Part shown: positions 10,346 to 61,470 of the stretch, piece after piece
How positions within the stretch are numbered: the stretch's first letter is position 1
Layout of the letters: the number at the start of each line of letters is the position of its first letter
Source of the DNA: Candidatus Woesearchaeota archaeon
GTDB taxonomy: Archaea > Nanobdellota > Nanobdellia > Woesearchaeales > GW2011-AR9
Reading direction: 5' to 3'
DNA length: 64,000 nt
Assembly (NCBI GenBank): GCA_018303445.1
Contig: JAGVYE010000001.1
Location: 2,571 to 66,570 of the forward strand
Program-made: the position numbers and the translations under genes
The notes under the pieces: model-generated
Seen by the model: only the letters and a program-made list of their open reading frames with translations
Databases searched by the model: none
What the model was told of the DNA's origin: nothing

Positions 10346-10948
10346 ATGATGAACGGTAGTAACTTCCAAGCACACACAAATCATCATATAATGGCTAATA
10401 TTTTCATTATTCATGGATACGGCGGTTATTCTAGAGAAAATTGGTTTTCCTCGCTAAAAGAGGAATTAGAGAAATTAGGGCATCAGGTTATTATTCCTGA
10501 TTTTCCGAATCCTGGAGCGCCTCTATTGAAAAGCTGGCTGGTTTTTTTTGAGAAGTATTCTCCTGAAATAGATGAAAACAGTATCATTATCGGCCATAGT
10601 CTTGGGGGAGCTTTTTTATTATCATTATTAGAAAAACGTAGACTGAAGGCAGCATTTTTCGTTGCGACAGTATCCGGACCAATAAATCACGAAGTCGATG
10701 ACTTCATAAAAACATTTACCCATAAACTATTTAACTGGAAGAAGATAACAGGGAATTGTAATCAATTTTATGTTTTACATTCTGATAAAGATCCTTACAT
10801 TCCGTTACAACAAGCGGAAAGCCTGGCGATTAATCTTAATACTAAAGTTATTATGATTAAAAATGGGGGTCATTTAAACAGTAAAGCTGGCTTTAAAACT
10901 TTCCCTTTATTGCTGGAAAAAGTGGTTAGGGTAGCTTCTATAAGATAA
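10346..10948 (+). CDS. Alpha/beta hydrolase, RBBP9/YdeN-like serine hydrolase
   Basis: 'IFIIHGYGG' and nucleophile elbow 'IIGHSLGG'. About 190 aa. Confidence 0.5.
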   Translation: MMNGSNFQAHTNHHIMANIFIIHGYGGYSRENWFSSLKEELEKLGHQVIIPDFPNPGAPLLKSWLVFFEKYSPEIDENSIIIGHSLGGAFLLSLLEKRRLKAAFFVATVSGPINHEVDDFIKTFTHKLFNWKKITGNCNQFYVLHSDKDPYIPLQQAESLAINLNTKVIMIKNGGHLNSKAGFKTFPLLLEKVVRVASIR

Positions 10949-10949
10949 A

Positions 10950-12161
10950 CTATCCAAAAAATTCATCCTTTACATTATCTTCTTCCTCTAATCTTACTTT
11001 TTCAATGGCTTGCTGGAAATCATTCTGGGTGACATATTCTCGGTCTTCTCTAATAGCAAAGAAACCGGCTTCTGTACAGGCGGCGCGTATTTCCGCTCCG
11101 GTAAAGTTTTCCATAGCTTTGACGACGGCTTTTACGCTAACTTTTTGTAAATTCATTTTTCTAGTGTGGACTTTGAAAATTTCTAAGCGACCATCTTCAT
11201 CAGGAATGCCGATTTCAATGAGGCGATCCAATCTTCCTGGGCGAATAATTGCCGGATCCAGTATATCAAGGCGGTTTGTTGCACCAATGACTTTTACATT
11301 ACCTAAAGGGTCAAAGCCATCAACCTCGGCAAGGAGCTGCATGAAAGTCCTGTTTACTTCTCTTTCTCCTGACGTTCCAGTGTCCATGCGAACCGCGGCA
11401 AGAGCATCAATTTCATCAATAAAAATAATCGCAGGAGCCTTACTCTTTGCTAATATGAAAATGTCTTTTACAAGTTTCGCGCCTTCTCCAATAAATTTCT
11501 GGACTAGTTCCGAGCCAACTACTTCAATAAAAGTGGCATTTGTACTATGGGCAACAGCCTTTGCCAGGAGTGTTTTTCCTGTGCCGGGAGGGCCAAATAA
11601 GAGAATTCCTTTAGGGGGAGTAATCCCCACTTTTTCAAATAATTTTGGTTTTGTAATGGGCAGTTCAATAACTTCTTTGATCTCAGCTACTTCTTTCTTA
11701 AGGCCGCCAATCTCTTTCCAGCTTTCAGGGGGTTTTTCTACAATAACAAATTTTTCCACTTCAAGATTACTGGAGACATTTACTTTCTTAACGATATTCA
11801 ATGTTTTTTGGTCGACGAGGACGCAATCTCCACTTTGCAGATCTTTGACTTCTTTGGCAATATAACAATAAAATTTATTCCCATTAGGCAATTTAATGAC
11901 ACTTTTATCATCATGGAGACTAATTACATCGGCAACAAGTAAAGCTGGTTTTTTTAAATTATTTAGTTCCGTATTGGCATTATTAAATAATTCTCTCAGC
12001 AGGGAACTTTCTTCTTCTAAGCGAGCTAAAGTTTTAGCGATAATTTGGTTTTCCTGCTCTAATTTTTGCACCGTTGTCGCTAGTATTTTACTGTCTTCTA
12101 GGTCATTACTAGTGAGTTCTTCAGAATAAATAATTTTTTTTTCTGTTTCGTCCTTTGACAT
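10950..12161 (-). CDS. pan: Proteasome-activating nucleotidase (AAA+ ATPase)
   Basis: N-terminal coiled coil, Walker A 'GPPGTGKT', Walker B 'IIFIDEID', 403 aa. Confidence 0.85.
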   Translation of the reverse strand: MSKDETEKKIIYSEELTSNDLEDSKILATTVQKLEQENQIIAKTLARLEEESSLLRELFNNANTELNNLKKPALLVADVISLHDDKSVIKLPNGNKFYCYIAKEVKDLQSGDCVLVDQKTLNIVKKVNVSSNLEVEKFVIVEKPPESWKEIGGLKKEVAEIKEVIELPITKPKLFEKVGITPPKGILLFGPPGTGKTLLAKAVAHSTNATFIEVVGSELVQKFIGEGAKLVKDIFILAKSKAPAIIFIDEIDALAAVRMDTGTSGEREVNRTFMQLLAEVDGFDPLGNVKVIGATNRLDILDPAIIRPGRLDRLIEIGIPDEDGRLEIFKVHTRKMNLQKVSVKAVVKAMENFTGAEIRAACTEAGFFAIREDREYVTQNDFQQAIEKVRLEEEDNVKDEFFG

Positions 12162-12283
12162 AATTTATTGAATCTCTTTGCTCTTTTTAAATCTTTATGA
12201 TGGTCCGATTATGGAATGAAAACAAGATGTCTTCTTCACTCCTCTTAGAAAACTATTTATATTCAATCAACACTTAAAATATT

Positions 12284-13471
12284 ATGAACGCAACGCAAAA
12301 GAATAATACTCTGAAAACTTTGGCAAAATTGCTTATCAAAAATAAACAAAGTATTATTGACAGCAACCAACAAGATCTTTCTGCCTGCCGGAATATTGAG
12401 GAATCAATGCTTGATAGATTGAAAGTTGATGAGAATAAAATCTTAGGAATGATTTCTGCTCTTAATTTTGCGATAAAATCTGATGATCCTGAAGGAAAAA
12501 TATTGTATTCTTATGTTCACCGGAATGGTCTAAAAATTGAAAATAAAACTGTTCCATTCGGCAAGATCATGATTATTTATGAATCAAGGCCAGATGTAAC
12601 AATCGAGGCAGCCATAACTGCTTTCAAGGCCGGGAATAAGATTTTATTAAAGGGAGGCAAAGAAGCCAGAAAGACTAATATGCTTTTGGCAAAACTCTGG
12701 CAAGAGGCACTATCTCTAAATGGACTGGATAAGAATTATGTAGTCTACTTAGACCTCACGAGAGAAGAAACGCAAGATTTAATTAAAAGTAATAATCATC
12801 ACCTTAATTTAATTATTCCAAGAGGCGGAGAGGAGCTTATTAACTTCGTTACACGCAATACAAATATCCCCGTGATAGTAAGTGGAAGAGGGAATAATTT
12901 TCTGTATGTGGATAAAGAATCTGACTTTGAGATGGCTATTAAAATTATACTAAATGGAAAACAAAGAGTAAGTGTTTGTAATGCTTTGGATAAAGTCCTT
13001 ATCCATAAAGAGATCCCAAATATCAAATTAAAGATATCAAATCTAGTCAATAAATTAAAAGTGAATAACATTAAAGTGTTGGGAGATAAAGCTATTTGCA
13101 GATTGAACAGGCAAGTACGGGAAATTGAGGACGAAGCAATATTCTATGAAGAATTTTTATCTTCTAAAATGTTATTAACCATAGTAAAAAATAATCCTGA
13201 AGCTATTAATCTTATTAACAAATATTCCGGTGGACATTCGGCAAGTATAATTACCACCAAAATTCAGACGGCACTAAAATTTCAAAATGAAGTTGATTGT
13301 GCGGTTGTCTACCATAACGCTTCGACGAGATTTACGGACGGCGGCCAATTCGGATTTGGAGCTGAAATAGCAATAAGCACGCAAAAACTTCATTTTAGAG
13401 GTCCAATTGGGATTAATCAGTTAGTTACTAACAAATGGTTCGTTTATGGAGATGGCCAAATAAGAGAATAA
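12284..13471 (+). CDS. proA: Gamma-glutamyl phosphate reductase (glutamate-5-semialdehyde dehydrogenase)
   Basis: 395 aa aldehyde-dehydrogenase-like with a 'VCNALD' region. Immediately followed by proB and proC. Confidence 0.7.
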   Translation: MNATQKNNTLKTLAKLLIKNKQSIIDSNQQDLSACRNIEESMLDRLKVDENKILGMISALNFAIKSDDPEGKILYSYVHRNGLKIENKTVPFGKIMIIYESRPDVTIEAAITAFKAGNKILLKGGKEARKTNMLLAKLWQEALSLNGLDKNYVVYLDLTREETQDLIKSNNHHLNLIIPRGGEELINFVTRNTNIPVIVSGRGNNFLYVDKESDFEMAIKIILNGKQRVSVCNALDKVLIHKEIPNIKLKISNLVNKLKVNNIKVLGDKAICRLNRQVREIEDEAIFYEEFLSSKMLLTIVKNNPEAINLINKYSGGHSASIITTKIQTALKFQNEVDCAVVYHNASTRFTDGGQFGFGAEIAISTQKLHFRGPIGINQLVTNKWFVYGDGQIRE

Positions 13472-48323: not shown

Positions 48324-48665
48324 ATGCCTCTCCTTCCTTCCCTTAAGCAAAAAAAAAGGTATGTGGTCTTTGAGATTCAAGCAGAGGAAAGTTTCTCTTT
48401 GCAGGAAGCTGAAGCTGCGGTTAAAGAAGGATTATTACGCTTTCTTGGAGAATTTGGCGTAGCGAAAGCTGGCCCGATGTTTATCAGAGAGAAATATCAG
48501 CCCAATAAGTTTATACTTAAGATTAATAATAAGTATGTCGCAGAGGTAATTTCTGCCATCATTCTTATCAAAAGTATTAAAAATAAGGCCGTGATTCTGC
48601 GTTCTATCATTACTTCCGGAACGCTTAAAAAGGCAAACGGGTATGTAGAAAAGCGAGGTGTGTGA
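48324..48665 (+). CDS. RNase P protein component Pop5 (Rnp2)
   Basis: 'KQKKRYVVFEI' and 'LGEFGVAKAGPMFI' match the archaeal Pop5 pattern. Position immediately upstream of psmA is the conserved one. Confidence 0.75.
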   Translation: MPLLPSLKQKKRYVVFEIQAEESFSLQEAEAAVKEGLLRFLGEFGVAKAGPMFIREKYQPNKFILKINNKYVAEVISAIILIKSIKNKAVILRSIITSGTLKKANGYVEKRGV

Positions 48666-48668
48666 ATT

Positions 48669-49397
48669 ATGAATGAAAAACAGATGATAGACAAGATGGG
48701 GTATGATCGTTCTATTACGATGTTTTCTCCCGATGGGAGGTTATTACAAGTTGAATATGCTAAAAAAACGGTTCGCCAAGGTTCTACGGCGATGGGAATC
48801 GTCTGTAAAGATGGAGTGGTTTTCGTTTCCGACAAGCGTATTACTTCTTCATTAATGGTTCCAGAAGCCATTGAAAAAATGTTCCGAATTGATGATCATA
48901 TCGGGGCCACGGCGGCGGGAATTATTTCTGATGCTCGTGTCTTGGTTGATAGGGTACAACTGCGAGCCCAGCAGCATGCTGTAACTTATGATTCTAAAAT
49001 AGATATTCTTTCCGTCGTGAAAGAAATCTGCGATTTGAAGCAGGTCTGTACTCAATCCGCTGGCTTACGGCCGTTTGGTGTTTCCATGCTTGTAGGCGGT
49101 GTTGAAGAAGATGGCAGCATTAAATTGTTCTTAACTGAACCGTATGGGTTATATTTCCAGTATAAAGCGGCAGTGATTGGCGAAGGTGAAGTAGAAATTG
49201 ATGCCATTCTGCAGAAAAGATATCGTGCTAATATGAGCGTGGAGGAAGGGATAAAATTAGGTGTCAGCTCCATGAAAGCCTTTCTTAAGACAGATTTCAA
49301 CCCAGAGAGAGTAGATGTGGCGTATATTAAAGCTGATGAACTACGATTTATGAAGTTAAGTGATGATGAGATTAAGAAAGCGGCGAAACAGGTTTAA
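48669..49397 (+). CDS. psmA: Proteasome alpha subunit
   Basis: 'YDRSITMFSPDGRLLQVEYA' alpha-subunit N-terminal signature. Confidence 0.9.
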   Translation: MNEKQMIDKMGYDRSITMFSPDGRLLQVEYAKKTVRQGSTAMGIVCKDGVVFVSDKRITSSLMVPEAIEKMFRIDDHIGATAAGIISDARVLVDRVQLRAQQHAVTYDSKIDILSVVKEICDLKQVCTQSAGLRPFGVSMLVGGVEEDGSIKLFLTEPYGLYFQYKAAVIGEGEVEIDAILQKRYRANMSVEEGIKLGVSSMKAFLKTDFNPERVDVAYIKADELRFMKLSDDEIKKAAKQV

Positions 49398-49451: not shown

Positions 49452-50144
49452 ATGCCTCAAAAACCAACCATTGCCCGTCTTAAACGTTATGGAAAAACTT
49501 TTGAATTAAGTGTTGATCCAGATAAAGCTTTAGCTTACAAGAAAGGAAGTATTTCTGATGTGGATGAGGTTCTCCACTCTGATTCAATCTTTACTGACGC
49601 AAAAAAAGGGGAACGTCCTTCTGAGGCAGAATTAAAAAAAGTTTTTGCTACGACAGATCAACGGAAAATTGCCGATCTCATTATTCGAGAAGGGGAAATT
49701 CAACACACGGCAGAGCATCGCGCTCAGGAAAAAGAACAACGGAAAAGAAAACTCATTACGATGATTCATACGCAGGCAGTTGATCCGAAAACAGGTTACC
49801 CTCACCCTCCCGAGAGAATCGAAGCCGCTTTAGAGCAAGGAAAGATACATCTCGATGATCATCGACCAGTTGAGCAGCAATTTGATGAGATTATTAAGAA
49901 ATTACGGCCGATAATTCCTATTCATATTGAACAGAAACAACTTGTGGTTATAATTCCAGCAGAATTTGCCGGGAAAATGTATTCGGTCATTCATTCTTCT
50001 GGGAGAGTTCTTAAAGAAGACTGGCTGTCAAATGGAAACTGGAGTGTTAAACTGGAATTGCCGGCAGGGCTGGTTTCTGAGTTTATCGATAAAATGAATT
50101 CGCTGACGCATGGAGAAGTCATAGTAGAAATGGAGAAAAAATAG
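49452..50144 (+). CDS. sdo1: Ribosome maturation protein SDO1/SBDS
   Basis: 'IARLKRYGKTFELSVDPDKALAYKKG' FYSH domain. 230 aa. Confidence 0.8.
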   Translation: MPQKPTIARLKRYGKTFELSVDPDKALAYKKGSISDVDEVLHSDSIFTDAKKGERPSEAELKKVFATTDQRKIADLIIREGEIQHTAEHRAQEKEQRKRKLITMIHTQAVDPKTGYPHPPERIEAALEQGKIHLDDHRPVEQQFDEIIKKLRPIIPIHIEQKQLVVIIPAEFAGKMYSVIHSSGRVLKEDWLSNGNWSVKLELPAGLVSEFIDKMNSLTHGEVIVEMEKK

Positions 50145-50172
50145 GGTAAGAGTTACTTTTAGCTGAAGCTTG

Positions 50173-51120
50173 CAAAACCAGGCTTGTCCAGAAAGGAATA
50201 AAAGTGTATACTGAATGTCATTGGTTATGACACAAACAACAATTCAGTATACACTAAAACATGAATTTCTTTCTGAAATTCTTAAACTTTATCATGGAAT
50301 GGATCTACCTTTATATGATAACCATTTTGGACCAAGGATTTACTCAGAGTTTCAAAAGCTTTCATTGGTCGTCTTGTTCAGACGATCCAAGAAAGTTCTG
50401 CGTGATTTTATCGCAGAACTGTTTGAGTCAAAGTGACTTTCTTGGCTTGATTTTAAGCAAATTCCCAGCAAAAGCGTGCTTCATGATTGGTGTACAAAGT
50501 ACACCGTTGAGTTCATTCGTAAACTCAACAGAACTCTTTTGCAAAATAAGAAGCCAAAACTCATGGCAGTTGATGCAACAGGAGTAGATGCATATCAACG
50601 AAGCAAACATTATGAAAAGCGAGCAAAGATAGAAGCGAAATTCAACAAGTTAAGTCTTTTTATTGACGTAGAAAACCATTTGATTTACGATCATGTCTTG
50701 CAGATGAAGCCACGACATGACGTCAAAGCAGCAGAAAGTATCTTTAAAAGAACATCTCTACGAGAGGTGAAGATACTCGGTGATAAAGGTTATGATAGTG
50801 AGCCATTACATGAAATAGTACAAAGTAAACAAAACATCTTGTTTACTCCCGTGAGAAAAAGCTCGCGGAGTAAACCTAAAGGTAAGAATAGAAGAAGATG
50901 CACGAAGGGAGATGGGCAATATAATCTGAGACCAAATGTTGAAAGCTGTATTCACAGCTTAAAGAAACGAAGGATACCTATTTTGCGAAGCAGATTACAC
51001 TTTATGAAAAAGAGAGAAATGGCGGTCCATATATTGATTCATAATATGGAGAAATTAAGTAAAGCTGTCCGGTTTTACATCAGAATGATGCTCAGCATCA
51101 TTCTGGACAAGCCTGTTTCC
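50173..51120 (+). mobile_element. Insertion sequence (~0.95 kb) with 15-bp perfect terminal inverted repeats CAGGCTTGTCCAGAA (50179-50193 / 51101-51115) and an internal left-end hairpin (gtgtatactgaat...attcagtatacac)
   Basis: The inverted repeats were read directly. The DDE transposase ORF lies between them. Confidence 0.55.
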
Positions 51121-51174
51121 AAAGCAATCATTAAAAGAAAAGATGGGAAGTACCTTCTAATTGAAAAGGGCTGA
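50215..51174 (+). pseudogene. IS4/IS5-like DDE transposase interrupted by an in-frame TGA (50434-50436); both ORF-track pieces (50215..50436, 50476..51174) are in one frame
   Basis: The translation is continuous across the stop ('...AELFESK*LSWLDFKQIPSKSVLHDWCTKY...'). DDE-like 'MAVDATGVD' and 'ILGDKGYDS'. Confidence 0.55.
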
Positions 51175-51484
51175 ACATAGTAAGAGTTTTCTTAAGTTAT
51201 GGGATTTTACTGGGGGGAAACAGGAACCCGGCGAAACTCCCACACAAGCGGTTATACGAGAAACAAGAGAAGAAACTTCATACGACATTGAGCCTGGTCT
51301 CGAGATTAAAAAAGCTGAGTATCATGATGCAAAAAAGATCTCCTTTTCCATTTTTTTGTTTCTAAAATAATCTCAGGGAAATTAAAACTGAGTAAAGATC
51401 ATTCCGATTTCAAGTCGGTTACCCAGAAACAGATGCAAAAACTTACTTTACATCCCTTCGTTTCATTATTCTTTGCTCAGTGCT
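51116..51484 (+). pseudogene. Nudix hydrolase gene remnant abutting the IS right end; N-terminus in IS-overlapping frame, frameshifted
   Basis: 'KAIIKRKDGKYLLIEK' in one frame, then Nudix box 'GGKQEPGETPTQAVIRETREETS' in another. C-terminal part sits in a third frame. Confidence 0.45.
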
Positions 51485-51524
51485 CCAAAGTGAATAAAAA
51501 CTAAAACAAAAAAATAAAGCCCAT

Positions 51525-54061: not shown

Positions 54062-54802
54062 GTGGACACCGCTATTTTCCAAGAAATTGGTTTAACCAAG
54101 AACGAAACAAAAGTGTATCTTACATTGTTAGAACTTGGCAGCACCTCGGCAGGACCTCTTATTAAAAATGTCGGCATGCATCGCGCTGCAGTTTACAACT
54201 TACTTGACTTGCTCATCAGCAAAGGACTAGTTTCGTATGTTATGCAGGCGAATCGCAAATATTTTCAGGCTCAAGATCCAGAATGTTTGGTCGAATATAT
54301 CGAAATGAAAAGACGTGAACTAGAAACCAAAGAAAATGAACTTAAGCGTCTCCTTCCGGAATTGCAAAAAAAAAGAAAATTAATTACTGAAGAGCAGGAA
54401 GGAACAATCTACAAAGGGAAAAAAGGCTTAAAGTCAATACTAGAAGATATTTTAAAAACAAAAAGTCCATTCCTCGTTTTTGGTGCCACTGGCCAATTTA
54501 AAGAGTTGTTTGGGGCTTATTTTATCCATTTTCATAATCGGCGTGCCAAAGCTAACATTTCCTTAAAAATCATATACAACGAACACCTTAGAGTTCAACA
54601 ACGTGAAAGAGAATTATCGAAAGCTGAAATTCATTATCTTCCTAAAGAGTACATAACACCCTCTACAACATACATCTGGAGTAATAGTGTAGCTGTTATT
54701 CAATGGAGTTCAGAACCTATGGCTTTTGTTATAAAAAGCAAATCCATTGCTGACTCTTATAAATCTTTTTTTAATGTTTTGTGGAAATCAGCTTCTCCTT
54801 AA
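54062..54802 (+). CDS. TrmB-family transcriptional regulator (GTG start)
   Basis: 'IGLTKNETKVYLTLLELGSTSAGPLIKNVGMHRAAVYNLLDLLISKGLV' winged-HTH of TrmB. Divergent from the ABC operon. Confidence 0.65.
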   Translation: MDTAIFQEIGLTKNETKVYLTLLELGSTSAGPLIKNVGMHRAAVYNLLDLLISKGLVSYVMQANRKYFQAQDPECLVEYIEMKRRELETKENELKRLLPELQKKRKLITEEQEGTIYKGKKGLKSILEDILKTKSPFLVFGATGQFKELFGAYFIHFHNRRAKANISLKIIYNEHLRVQQRERELSKAEIHYLPKEYITPSTTYIWSNSVAVIQWSSEPMAFVIKSKSIADSYKSFFNVLWKSASP

Positions 54803-59254: not shown

Positions 59255-60043
59255 ATGATTTTTGTTAAACCTATTTCATTTCAAAACAATAAAAGACAAA
59301 CATTACGTGGTTTTATTCACGAACCTCGGAAATATACTACGGCAGTTATTGTCCTTCATGGTTTTCCGGGACATTGTGAAGGTTCTGTTCCCTCACGTCT
59401 TGCACTGACATTAGCTATCAAAGGATATCTTACACTACACTTTAATTTTTCTGGTTCTGACACTTCTGAAGGAAAATTTGGAGATAAATTAATTAGTCAG
59501 GAAGTTAAAGAGATTAAATCGGCGATTGATTTTTTGGAACGAACTTATCACTTTAAGCGTTTAGTTATCATTGGTCATTCAACTGGGGCTATCGATGCGG
59601 CATTGTATGCTCACACAGATGAAAGAATTAGTAAGCTCGTGTTGTTAGGCGCAGTCTCAAAATTGAATGAAGCGGTACGGTACGATTTTACGGATAAACA
59701 AGTACGTGACTTTTGGATGAATGGTTATGTTGTCTATAAAAATAAAGATCCGGTGGGGAAGAAGTGGTGGGCTGATGGTAAAAAGTTGAGGAAAACATTT
59801 TATGATGAATTCTTTACGTTAAACATTCCTGCGGCGATTAAAAAATATAAGAAACCATTGTTAATTGTTCATGGAGAAAAAGATGAAGCTATTCCTGTTG
59901 GAAAGGATCCTCATGAACTCTTCCAGATGGCAAATAAACCAAAGAAATTGGCGATTATTAATGGAGCTGATCATAAGTTTACTAATGAAAAGTATTTTAA
60001 GGAATTGGTGAAAGTGATTGTGGAGTTTTGCGAGAAAAAATGA
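59255..60043 (+). CDS. Alpha/beta hydrolase (start set to ATG just after secD stop)
   Basis: 'VIVLHGFPGH' and nucleophile elbow 'IIGHSTGA'. The ORF-track start at 59051 lies inside secD. Confidence 0.55.
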   Translation: MIFVKPISFQNNKRQTLRGFIHEPRKYTTAVIVLHGFPGHCEGSVPSRLALTLAIKGYLTLHFNFSGSDTSEGKFGDKLISQEVKEIKSAIDFLERTYHFKRLVIIGHSTGAIDAALYAHTDERISKLVLLGAVSKLNEAVRYDFTDKQVRDFWMNGYVVYKNKDPVGKKWWADGKKLRKTFYDEFFTLNIPAAIKKYKKPLLIVHGEKDEAIPVGKDPHELFQMANKPKKLAIINGADHKFTNEKYFKELVKVIVEFCEKK

Positions 60044-61470
60044 CTTGGGAAAAACTTATCACGAGGCGATTAGCAGTACAAGTTGCACAAGCTTGGAATT
60101 TTGCTGGTCAGGCTATGCAGAAAGTTTATGGTGTTTCGATTTTTAGTACATTAGTTTTTAAAGATGACAAAAAGACGGAGTATTATGTTGATGAAAAAGA
60201 ACATAAACAGTATGTAGCTGGTTTATACAAACTTCTTCAAAATAAAAAATTCTTGATAAATTTTCACCGCGATGCTCAAAAAAAACTTGAGGAAATATTA
60301 AATGAAGTTCAACAAACACTGTCTTCGAATCTCTCTAATTTTTCCTATGAAGAATTACTTTCCGTTTACCAACATTTTATCCTTCCAAAAGTCGAGCAAT
60401 TTTACATTCGTATGTGGACTGTCTTTAATATTGCTGAACCTTTGACAACAGTTGTTTTACAAAGACTACAAGAGATAGTGAAAGACAGGAAAAAAGCCGA
60501 ACAGTATTTACTTATTTTATCAGCAGCACAAGAAGCAAACGATATTCTTCAAGAACGAATAGAGCTCCTGAAACTCTCGGTTCTTTTTTCAAAACAAGGA
60601 AGGATTAATATGAAAGAAGTTGAAAAGCACACTGGGAAGTATCAACACATTCCTCTTTTTGATTTTGATCACGAGCCTTATCATAAAGAGCATTTTCTGC
60701 AGGAGTTAAAAGAAATAAACAATCCAGAGAAAGAACTCAATGTGATCCAAGTAAAGCTCCATCACAACAAAGAAGAAAGAGAAAATTTACTCAAAAAATT
60801 AAAGTTAGATAATGACACATTACTTCTTATTACTTTCCTAAAGGAGAATGTCTTTCTTCGAGATTATAGAGATATGATCCGGCAGAAGCTTAATCTTCAG
60901 CTTCGCCGTTTCTATATGGAAGGAGGAAGAAGATTAGGTTTGACAATAAATCAAGTGGCTCTTCTTACAAATGAGGAAATTATTACCTCTTTAGAGAATC
61001 ACAAACAATTTTCTCAAAAGATTGCCAAAGAACGTGAAAATAATTTTCTTCTTATTCAACGTGGTTCTTCTGCTGAAATTTATTCAGGGAAAAAAGCTGT
61101 GGAGAAGGCACGAGGCGAGTTACATTCTGAACAAAAGTCCGATGTTTCTGATATTCAAGGAATTGTCGGTTCACCCGGTAAAGTACAAGGTGTTGTTGTT
61201 ATTGTTTATACAAATAAAGACCTCTTTAAAGTAAAGAAAGGAAATGTTCTTGTTGCTACGATGACGAGACAAGATTTTGTTCCTGTGATGCGAAAAGCTG
61301 CGGCTATTATTACTGATGAGGGAGGTGTAACTTGCCATGCCGCCATAATTTCTCGCGAGTTAGGCATCCCTTGTATAGTCGGTGCTAAATGGGCAACTTT
61401 GCAGCTTAAAGATGGGGACTATGTAGAAGTTGACGCTGAGAAAGGAGTTGTAAAATTACTGAAACGTTAG
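60028..61470 (+). CDS. PEP-utilising-enzyme mobile-domain protein with uncharacterised helical N-terminal ~370 aa
   Basis: C-terminal 'VLVATMTRQDFVPVMRKAAAIITDEGGVTCHAAIISRELGIPCIVG' is the PEP-utilizer phosphohistidine swivel domain. Confidence 0.5.
   Translation: MREKMTWEKLITRRLAVQVAQAWNFAGQAMQKVYGVSIFSTLVFKDDKKTEYYVDEKEHKQYVAGLYKLLQNKKFLINFHRDAQKKLEEILNEVQQTLSSNLSNFSYEELLSVYQHFILPKVEQFYIRMWTVFNIAEPLTTVVLQRLQEIVKDRKKAEQYLLILSAAQEANDILQERIELLKLSVLFSKQGRINMKEVEKHTGKYQHIPLFDFDHEPYHKEHFLQELKEINNPEKELNVIQVKLHHNKEERENLLKKLKLDNDTLLLITFLKENVFLRDYRDMIRQKLNLQLRRFYMEGGRRLGLTINQVALLTNEEIITSLENHKQFSQKIAKERENNFLLIQRGSSAEIYSGKKAVEKARGELHSEQKSDVSDIQGIVGSPGKVQGVVVIVYTNKDLFKVKKGNVLVATMTRQDFVPVMRKAAAIITDEGGVTCHAAIISRELGIPCIVGAKWATLQLKDGDYVEVDAEKGVVKLLKR

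Follow-up and report, generated by a model that had tools for sequence, protein, structure and literature searches.

The insertion sequences IS10 and IS50 are subject to fold-back inhibition: in their read-through transcripts, the translation start is masked by a hairpin in the RNA. An archaeal exosome/proteasome superoperon with the gene order Pop5-PsmA-SBDS-Rrp4-Rrp41-Rrp42 was reportedly described by Koonin, Wolf and Aravind in 2001. Members of the ISH1 subgroup of the IS5 family are 900–1150 bp long, contain a single open reading frame (ORF) and produce an 8-bp direct target duplication (PMC6352166, table). Here we describe a locus in a 64-kb stretch of DNA from a Candidatus Woesearchaeota archaeon (further referred to as the window, i.e. 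the whole stretch that was analysed). The locus is an inactivated IS5-family element standing at a synteny break beside a decaying Nudix hydrolase gene, a case of ordinary genome decay. We give a probability of about 0.85 to the whole explanation, namely that the element is one copy of an IS5-family insertion sequence, ISH1-like in its size and single-ORF layout and common in DPANN archaea, with a TGG-to-TGA change in its transposase gene and a decayed Nudix gene next to it. All features are located on the plus strand of the window and are numbered from its first letter.

The insertion sequence occupies positions 50179–51115 (937 bp) and begins 34 nt past the stop codon of the SBDS gene. It is bounded by perfect 15-bp terminal inverted repeats, and its ends are known to within 1–2 nt. 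The left repeat, CAGGCTTGTCCAGAA, is located at 50179–50193 and the right one, the exact reverse complement of CAGGCTTGTCCAGAA, at 51101–51115. These are the sole two matches to the repeat and its reverse complement in the window when up to two mismatches are allowed (0.15 expected), and no further copy of the element was found in the 64 kb, where it is thus a single copy. Identical 15-bp ends are present in L053, the closest related copy (88% nucleotide identity); the motif of the left repeat is kept at the left ends of relatives, and homologous elements located in unrelated contexts carry the terminal motif xGCYYTGTCCrGAA at either end. With a DDE_Tnp_1 transposase between the repeats and their motif recurring in relatives, the initial annotation of the locus as an IS element with 15-bp terminal inverted repeats is confirmed.

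The edges of the element are also visible in metagenome contigs, three of which end exactly at 51115 and one of which starts at 50180. Similarity between the window and L053 stops at 51115 on the right; on the left, past the shared CA at 50179–50180, there is only a weak flanking stretch with 6/9 matches, which was judged to be due to chance. Weak inverted similarity of the flanks and TATA-like boxes could suggest that the ends are situated further out. Such an extension was rejected, since two 100%-identical copies, L007 and L035, have no more than 2 nt and 1 nt in common outside the GG...CC core; the comparison of the window with L053, where 2 nt are shared on each side, also speaks against it.

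The transposase is encoded in a single frame. The two listed ORF pieces, 50215–50436 and 50476–51174, share this frame and are parted solely by the TGA at 50434–50436. Read with the stop as X, the protein has 297 residues counted from the ATG at 50227, which corresponds to the consensus start MTQTTIQY. The listed ORF begins with an ATG at 50215, which was rejected as the real start: four fetched relatives (L031, L038, L042 and L053) have a stop codon there, two codons upstream of the MTQTTIQY start. Codons 1–69 (50227–50433) form the N-terminal DNA-binding part, whereas the catalytic residues D116, D186 and E239 are encoded by the part from codon 71 onward (50437–51174). No terminating stop of the frame is located inside the element. 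The frame reads out through the right repeat, which also encodes the conserved C-terminal residues ILDKP, and continues for 19 codons into the Nudix remnant up to the stop TGA at 51172–51174; in relatives, variable tails are found after ILD[KR]P.

In Pfam the transposase belongs to DDE_Tnp_1 (PF01609), with a score of 45.1 bits against a cut-off of 23 and profile positions 3–199 of 200 covered. Its best NCBIfam match is the IS5 family transposase model NF033579 (profile positions 35–288 of 289). The score of this match, 112.7 bits, is below the curated cut-off of 140, and the transposase is thus IS5-like but outside that equivalog. We aligned the window protein with 21 full-length homologues having 46–89% identity (alignment A1). 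D116, D186, E239 and the Y(2)R(3)E(6)K signature are invariant in these 22 sequences, the second D-to-E spacing being 53 residues. Among named proteins, the IS5 transposases of haloarchaea and Methanomethylovorans are the nearest ones (27–30% identity). Nearly all homologues come from Woesearchaeota, Pacearchaeota and Nanoarchaeota MAGs or from metagenome contigs of about 1 kb, which is the usual look of a collapsed repeat. Viral contigs yielded only distant matches (24–37% identity).

A conserved A/T box, AATAAAAG, is located at 50197–50204, about 27 nt before the start codon, and its columns are invariant or nearly so in alignment A3. AATAAAAG may serve as an archaeal TATA box from which the transposase mRNA is made without a leader. 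It is followed by a 5' hairpin (50203–50255) with a perfect 14-bp stem formed by the arms 50203–50216 and 50242–50255 (−21.7 kcal/mol, z −6.8). The start codon ATG at 50227 is situated in the loop of this hairpin, where it is paired in an inner stem. Nearly all relatives have analogous stems of different sequences at the same position. In a model-guided alignment of 20 distinct sequences, that is, one fitted to the structure, compensatory changes were observed in 11 of the 13 pairs; none of the shuffled controls reached the observed score, and slid controls reached at most one third of it. The hairpin would hide the start codon in transcripts entering from outside the element. The 5' arm is located upstream of the start site of the likely internal promoter, and a promoter inside the left end would yield a leaderless, translatable mRNA without this arm. 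The second hairpin, CAGAATGATGCT-C-AGCATCATTCTG (51081–51105; −15.8 kcal/mol, z −4.3), runs into the inner part of the right repeat; it is conserved in the close clade and in L009, where its pairing is preserved by compensatory changes.

The in-frame TGA at 50434–50436, whose presence in the transposase gene was noted in the initial annotation and holds, replaces Trp70 (TGG to TGA), a residue that is W in all 21 aligned proteins and at 33 of 33 DNA loci. It aligns with the near-invariant Trp of the conserved block ESKWLSWLD; the codons at this site are TCA AAG TGG CTT in L053 vs TCA AAG TGA CTT in the window. Since all 33 related DNA loci that were fetched have TGG (Trp) here, the TGA is a single G-to-A nonsense mutation in an otherwise undamaged gene, and neither a recoding site nor part of a two-ORF design. 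A two-ORF frameshift design is ruled out by the single ORF of the relatives and by the location of both pieces in one frame. In the window, TGA ends 14 of the 56 long ORFs (at least 150 codons). It is therefore an ordinary stop in the host, and reassignment of UGA as a sense codon was rejected on the same count. Programmed UGA recoding, either as selenocysteine or by conserved readthrough, was rejected given TGG in 33/33 homologues and the absence of any match, SECIS families included, in an Rfam search of the whole window. Hence, normal decoding would give at most a 69-residue N-terminal fragment. The mutation is probably recent, because nothing else in the transposase gene has decayed. Among the relatives we found one other internal stop, at a different position. 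Two short transposase matches, P0030 and P0033, were considered as further TGA-bearing copies and dismissed: P0030 is the same locus in another sample, and the contig of P0033 is too short for a decision.

To the right of the element lies a Nudix hydrolase pseudogene (51115–51504) with no start codon, its first three codons missing, two frameshifts and a stop TAA at 51502–51504. The Nudix N-terminus (SKAIIKRKDGKYLL) directly follows the right repeat and reads as (V)SKAIIKRKDGKYLL from 51115. The first frameshift is of the +1 type, with one extra A at 51159–51160 (between YLL and LKRAEH; identical in L001, L054 and L069–L078), and moves the reading into the frame holding the Nudix box. The second one is of the −1 type, with one A lost in the A-run at 51331–51336 (between EYHDAK and KDLLFHFF), and restores the frame of the N-terminus. 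The view of the initial annotation that the gene is destroyed was right; its placement of the Nudix box and the C-terminus in two other frames has to be corrected, as the C-terminal part is back in the frame of the N-terminus and two frames are used in total. The rejoined pieces match Pfam PF00293 (49.8 bits) and show 65% identity to the intact protein P0121 from residue 4 to the end with a single one-residue gap. Compared with the consensus GX5EX7REUXEEXGU, the Nudix box GKQEPGETPTQAVIRETREETSY has Ser for the last Gly. Intact homologues with 58–61% identity start with MIE[IV]SK. The neighbourhoods seen for intact homologues (58–60% identity) are of bacterial type (DnaB, RecR, RuvC, GroEL/ES) and uninformative on the ancestral site. 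No high-identity intact Nudix protein was found among the 5.8 billion proteins searched. The insertion, or a rearrangement at the element, would have silenced the gene first, the frameshifts presumably being acquired later under relaxed selection.

Contigs from about ten groundwater metagenome samples show the order SBDS-IS-Nudix, the TGA and the frameshifts with 100% identity. The 203-residue ORF product across the junction of the element and the Nudix gene was found on 11 contigs from about ten samples, and both junctions are spanned by five contigs (L069/L001, L071, L072, L074 and L077). Wherever a contig reaches the TGA or the frameshifts, its sequence there is the same (100%). L001, which has 2 SNPs relative to the window over 20.7 kb, therefore represents an independent assembly. 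Given the identical contigs from about ten samples and the five contigs spanning both junctions, the arrangement is real and fixed in this population together with the TGA and the frameshifts. At the same time, the population at this site is not uniform, since contigs stop at the right end of the element and different flanks are seen on the right in L002 and on the left in L073. L002, observed in five assemblies, contains a hybrid element identical to that of the window up to 50963 and then 98–100% identical to another family member (L032 type), the switch point being within a shared stretch of only 29 nt; an IS6-like transposase as well as a tRNA-like sequence are situated in its right flank. 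L054 has the junction and the first frameshift and diverges after 51279. The left flank of L073 begins after a run of eight G, and, as this poly-G run is suspicious, the flank was not trusted as a true alternative.

Several readings of these data differ from the one given above. Short-read assemblies often break or mis-join at repeats; the contigs ending at 51115 and starting at 50180, as well as the alternative flanks of L002 and L073, would fit a chimera joined through the repeated element, with the stop and the frameshifts being consensus errors. However, the five contigs spanning both junctions come from different samples and assemblers, and about ten samples agree to 100% over the TGA and both frameshifts; an assembly or sequencing error is very unlikely. 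The 15-bp repeats would be a regulatory palindrome of the Nudix gene, a possibility raised in the initial annotation, if their position beside the Nudix remnant, the sole point in favor of this reading, were decisive. But this motif terminates homologous elements in over 20 unrelated settings, where it always brackets the transposase gene, so that the repeats are transposon ends and the palindrome is ruled out, with a probability close to nil. The TGA could also be leaky, with low-level readthrough by Trp-tRNA restoring the wild-type protein and leaving the copy down-tuned but live. In the organisms studied so far, UGA followed by C is a weak terminator, and near-cognate misreading of UGA inserts Trp. 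The residue lost here is just this amino acid, the rest of the transposase gene is undamaged, and a local structure with arms at 50387–96 and 50436–45 (z −3.7) starts at the last base of the TGA. Yet the codon is TGG in all 33 relatives, internal stops elsewhere are few and scattered (a single one, at a different position), and only a single copy of the sequence was seen, with no sign of spread after the mutation; we consider a leaky TGA improbable and retain the nonsense mutation in an inactivated element as the preferred reading.

The gene neighborhood upstream of the element is conserved. Pop5 (48324–48665), the proteasome alpha subunit PsmA (48669–49397) and SBDS/Sdo1 (49452–50144) were identified by Pfam, SBDS being at the end of the conserved superoperon segment. 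The SBDS protein of the window is identical to NCBI MBS3116016.1 (Candidatus Woesearchaeota). The upstream order RFC, tRNA synthetase, small ORF, OB-fold protein, Pop5, PsmA, SBDS is that of the relatives (e.g. L056), in agreement with the initial placement of the element directly after Pop5-PsmA-SBDS. In four of five Woesearchaeota relatives (61–64% SBDS identity) the Rrp4-Rrp41-Rrp42 block is located after SBDS within 0–3 genes: it follows directly in L055 and after one, two and three genes in L051, L056 and L052, respectively. RpoK (Rpb6) follows Rrp42 in the three relatives whose fetched DNA reaches it, and the stretch of L052 ends within Rrp42. A tblastn search with the relatives' proteins as queries gave no match to Rrp4, Rrp41, Rrp42 or Rpb6 (RpoK) in the 64-kb window. 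L050, the closest relative with context (68% SBDS identity), has no exosome genes after SBDS either. The comparison with related genomes proposed earlier thus finds the exosome genes after SBDS in four of five and none in the window. The claim that the element stands exactly where these genes follow sdo1 is supported by the same four relatives, but "exactly" is somewhat loose. The element marks a synteny break, the relatives continuing with Rrp4-Rrp41-Rrp42-RpoK, and this break may be older than the insertion because the exosome genes are missing after SBDS in L050 as well.

No target-site duplication of any length or offset was found at the window element or at nine close relatives, whereas clean duplications of 8–9 bp are present in six distant relatives (L012, L014, L016, L017, L021 and L023). 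Two copies from the close clade are 100% identical over 920 bp and have different flanks and no duplication. Chimeric assembly of multi-copy elements could mimic such a lack of duplications in the close clade. It is rather doubtful that the close clade including the window element, unlike the distant members with their 8–9 bp, inserts without any target-site duplication. If true, this would mean that strand transfer has a blunt or near-blunt geometry, which is unusual for a DDE transposase, and that the window copy entered the Nudix gene cleanly, between its codons 3 and 4. An element-free site was not found: all contigs with identical SBDS that are long enough to show the site carry the element. 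Neither an empty-site relative nor an intact copy of this Nudix gene was found among the contigs and proteins searched, and hence the order of events is only inferred.

Two scenarios may account for the junction. The element may have been simply inserted, without target duplication, into a Nudix gene already situated behind SBDS, between its third and fourth codons, the exosome genes having moved earlier; we assign this nearly an even chance. Deletion of 50179–51114 joins TTG CAA AAC to GTT TCC AAA, which gives MQNVSKAII in the Nudix frame, a start just as long as MIE[IV]SK in the intact homologues, and the predicted empty-site sequence is GCTGAAGCTTGCAAAAC(G)TTTCCAAAGCAATC. None of the ten close-clade insertions has a duplication, and the missing exosome genes of L050 fit an earlier move. 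However, the in-frame TTG requires the right end to be at 51114 instead of 51115 and would occur by accident in about 5% of cases, the protein database searched contains no MQNV-type Nudix, there is no clear promoter or ribosome-binding signal before the TTG, and DDE transposases normally duplicate their target. Alternatively, a rearrangement at the element (recombination between copies, intramolecular transposition or an adjacent deletion) joined the SBDS flank to a distant Nudix flank, in which case the Nudix start would have been lost and the Rrp4-Rrp41-Rrp42-RpoK block transferred to another place. The lack of both a duplication and ATG ATT GAA in the left flank, the end of synteny exactly at the element and the contigs breaking exactly at 51115 agree with this, and the L002 hybrid from five assemblies demonstrates that recombination between copies occurs in the population. 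Moreover, RpoK is usually essential and yet absent from the window; therefore, the block was probably moved rather than lost. On the other hand, duplications are absent throughout the close clade and their absence is hence unspecific here, and a second copy of the exact element type was not found in the sequences searched. We regard such a rearrangement as possible, at about one chance in three.

For annotation, the locus should be described as an IS5-family element with a nonsense-mutated transposase followed by a Nudix pseudogene and not as three or four small "hypothetical" genes. The family to which the element belongs is apparently uncurated and is widespread in DPANN archaea (Woesearchaeota, Pacearchaeota, Nanoarchaeota); its ends, the conserved start-codon hairpin and the read-out ORF are defined here. 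The element at the broken exosome/proteasome superoperon of one lineage is a small example of mobile elements reshaping reduced DPANN genomes. Nothing in this is surprising to a specialist.

Comparison with known systems places the element near the ISH1 subgroup, e.g. ISH1 of Halobacterium and ISTth7 of Thermus. It resembles them in its length of 937 bp, one ORF, short repeats beginning with xGC, the DDE residues, of which the second D and the E are closely spaced (53 residues), and Y(2)R(3)E(6)K, and its distant DPANN relatives have duplications of 8–9 bp. In contrast, the transposase is 27–30% identical to the nearest named IS5 transposases and scores under the NCBIfam cut-off, the ORF has no stop of its own inside the element, and the window element and its nine close relatives have no target duplication. 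Because this last feature of the subgroup is missing, we call the element ISH1-like and do not assign it to ISH1. The best matches among annotated plasmids are to the ISHvo2 family and other haloarchaeal IS5 elements, with 82–92% of the protein covered; the identity is low, and the host belongs to DPANN and not to haloarchaea or methanogens. The two ORF pieces recall IS1, IS3 and the IS427 and IS1031 groups of IS5, where programmed −1 frameshifting takes place, but here the pieces are in the same frame and split at a conserved Trp, and the relatives have one uninterrupted ORF. As for the archaeal exosome/proteasome superoperon, Rrp4, Rrp41, Rrp42 and RpoK are absent from the 64-kb window, whereas Pop5-PsmA-SBDS are present in the usual order. 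Unlike the situation in IS10 and IS50, the host of the window element is an archaeon, the mRNA is probably leaderless, and the stem is located entirely inside the element with its 3' arm coding; the likeness is that a stable, covarying stem encloses the start codon of the transposase.

A stem-loop surrounding the transposase start codon (window 50203–50255) is found at the same position in the related elements of loci L007–L023, L031–L044 and L053, the last being the closest copy (88% nucleotide identity). It is retained throughout the IS family, with stem sequences differing from clade to clade. Compensatory pairs account for 11 of 13, and the observed score was matched by none of the shuffled or slid controls. 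The stem-loop is likely a translational control element.

Two further hairpins lie in the element. One of them (window 51081–51105) shares sequence with the inner portion of the right terminal repeat, codes for RMMLxIIL and recurs at the right ends of the copies in L031–L038, L008 and L009. Within the close clade, formed by the element and its nearest relatives, it is kept via compensatory changes from GATG/CATC to GGTG/CACC or GGTTG/CAACC; it is absent from the distant clade of remoter family members. The other is a perfect 10-bp stem (window 50387–50396 and 50436–50445) which starts at the last base of the in-frame TGA, and the local fold of the window sequence at this place has an energy of −24.9 kcal/mol (z = −3.7).

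No target-site duplication was observed at ten close-clade insertions, namely the one in the window (50179/51115) and those in L007, L008, L031–L036 and L053. Clean duplications of 8–9 bp were observed at six distant-clade insertions (L012, L014, L016, L017, L021 and L023). The elements in L007 and L035 are 100% identical, whereas both their left and right flanks are unrelated. The flanks of many copies, 15–27 nt beyond both ends, contain TATA-like boxes (TTTAAA, TTTATAAAT) and show weak inverted similarity; examples are the left flank of L053, L012, L033, L036, L037/L038 and window positions 50155–50178 and 51116–51141. In L012 a perfect 13-nt inverted repeat lies outside the target duplication. 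Insertions may survive only in short promoter-bearing spacers, or palindromic AT-rich targets may be preferred.

Variant forms were found in other samples. In contig L002 (ERZ4903072, positions 10730–12844; four similar contigs) the element is a hybrid, being of the window type up to window position 50963 and of the L032/P0005 type thereafter, which suggests that two family members recombined in some strains. Beyond it, the minus strand encodes an IS6-like (rve/IS240) transposase, and there is also a tRNA-like sequence that probably contains an intron. In L073 (ANAN16 scaffold_314794, positions 1–139) an alternative left flank meets the element at window position 50180; it comprises the C-terminus of an rve-type transposase and then a run of eight G. 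This flank represents either a variant strain or an artefact of scaffolding. Contig L054 from another sample (JGI 3300009031, positions 1–1577) carries a Nudix remnant identical to that in the window up to position 51279, past which unrelated genes are joined on, with an NTP_transf_2 protein downstream. This is an additional deletion or rearrangement of the pseudogene.

In relatives (L050 and L051 were compared) the TrmB regulator and the PEP-utilizer protein lie upstream of or adjoining SBDS; in the window (54062–54802 and 60028–61470) they are 4–10 kb downstream. Their shifted positions suggest more local reshuffling near the superoperon. The closest intact Nudix homologues (58–60% identity; contexts of P0123 and P0124, loci L046–L049) reside in bacterial-type neighbourhoods with genes for DnaB, RecR, RuvC, YebC and YidD, or for GroES/GroEL. 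In L048 the homologue adjoins a TrmB regulator, as the remnant, loosely, does in the window. Genes may have been transferred between DPANN archaea and bacteria.
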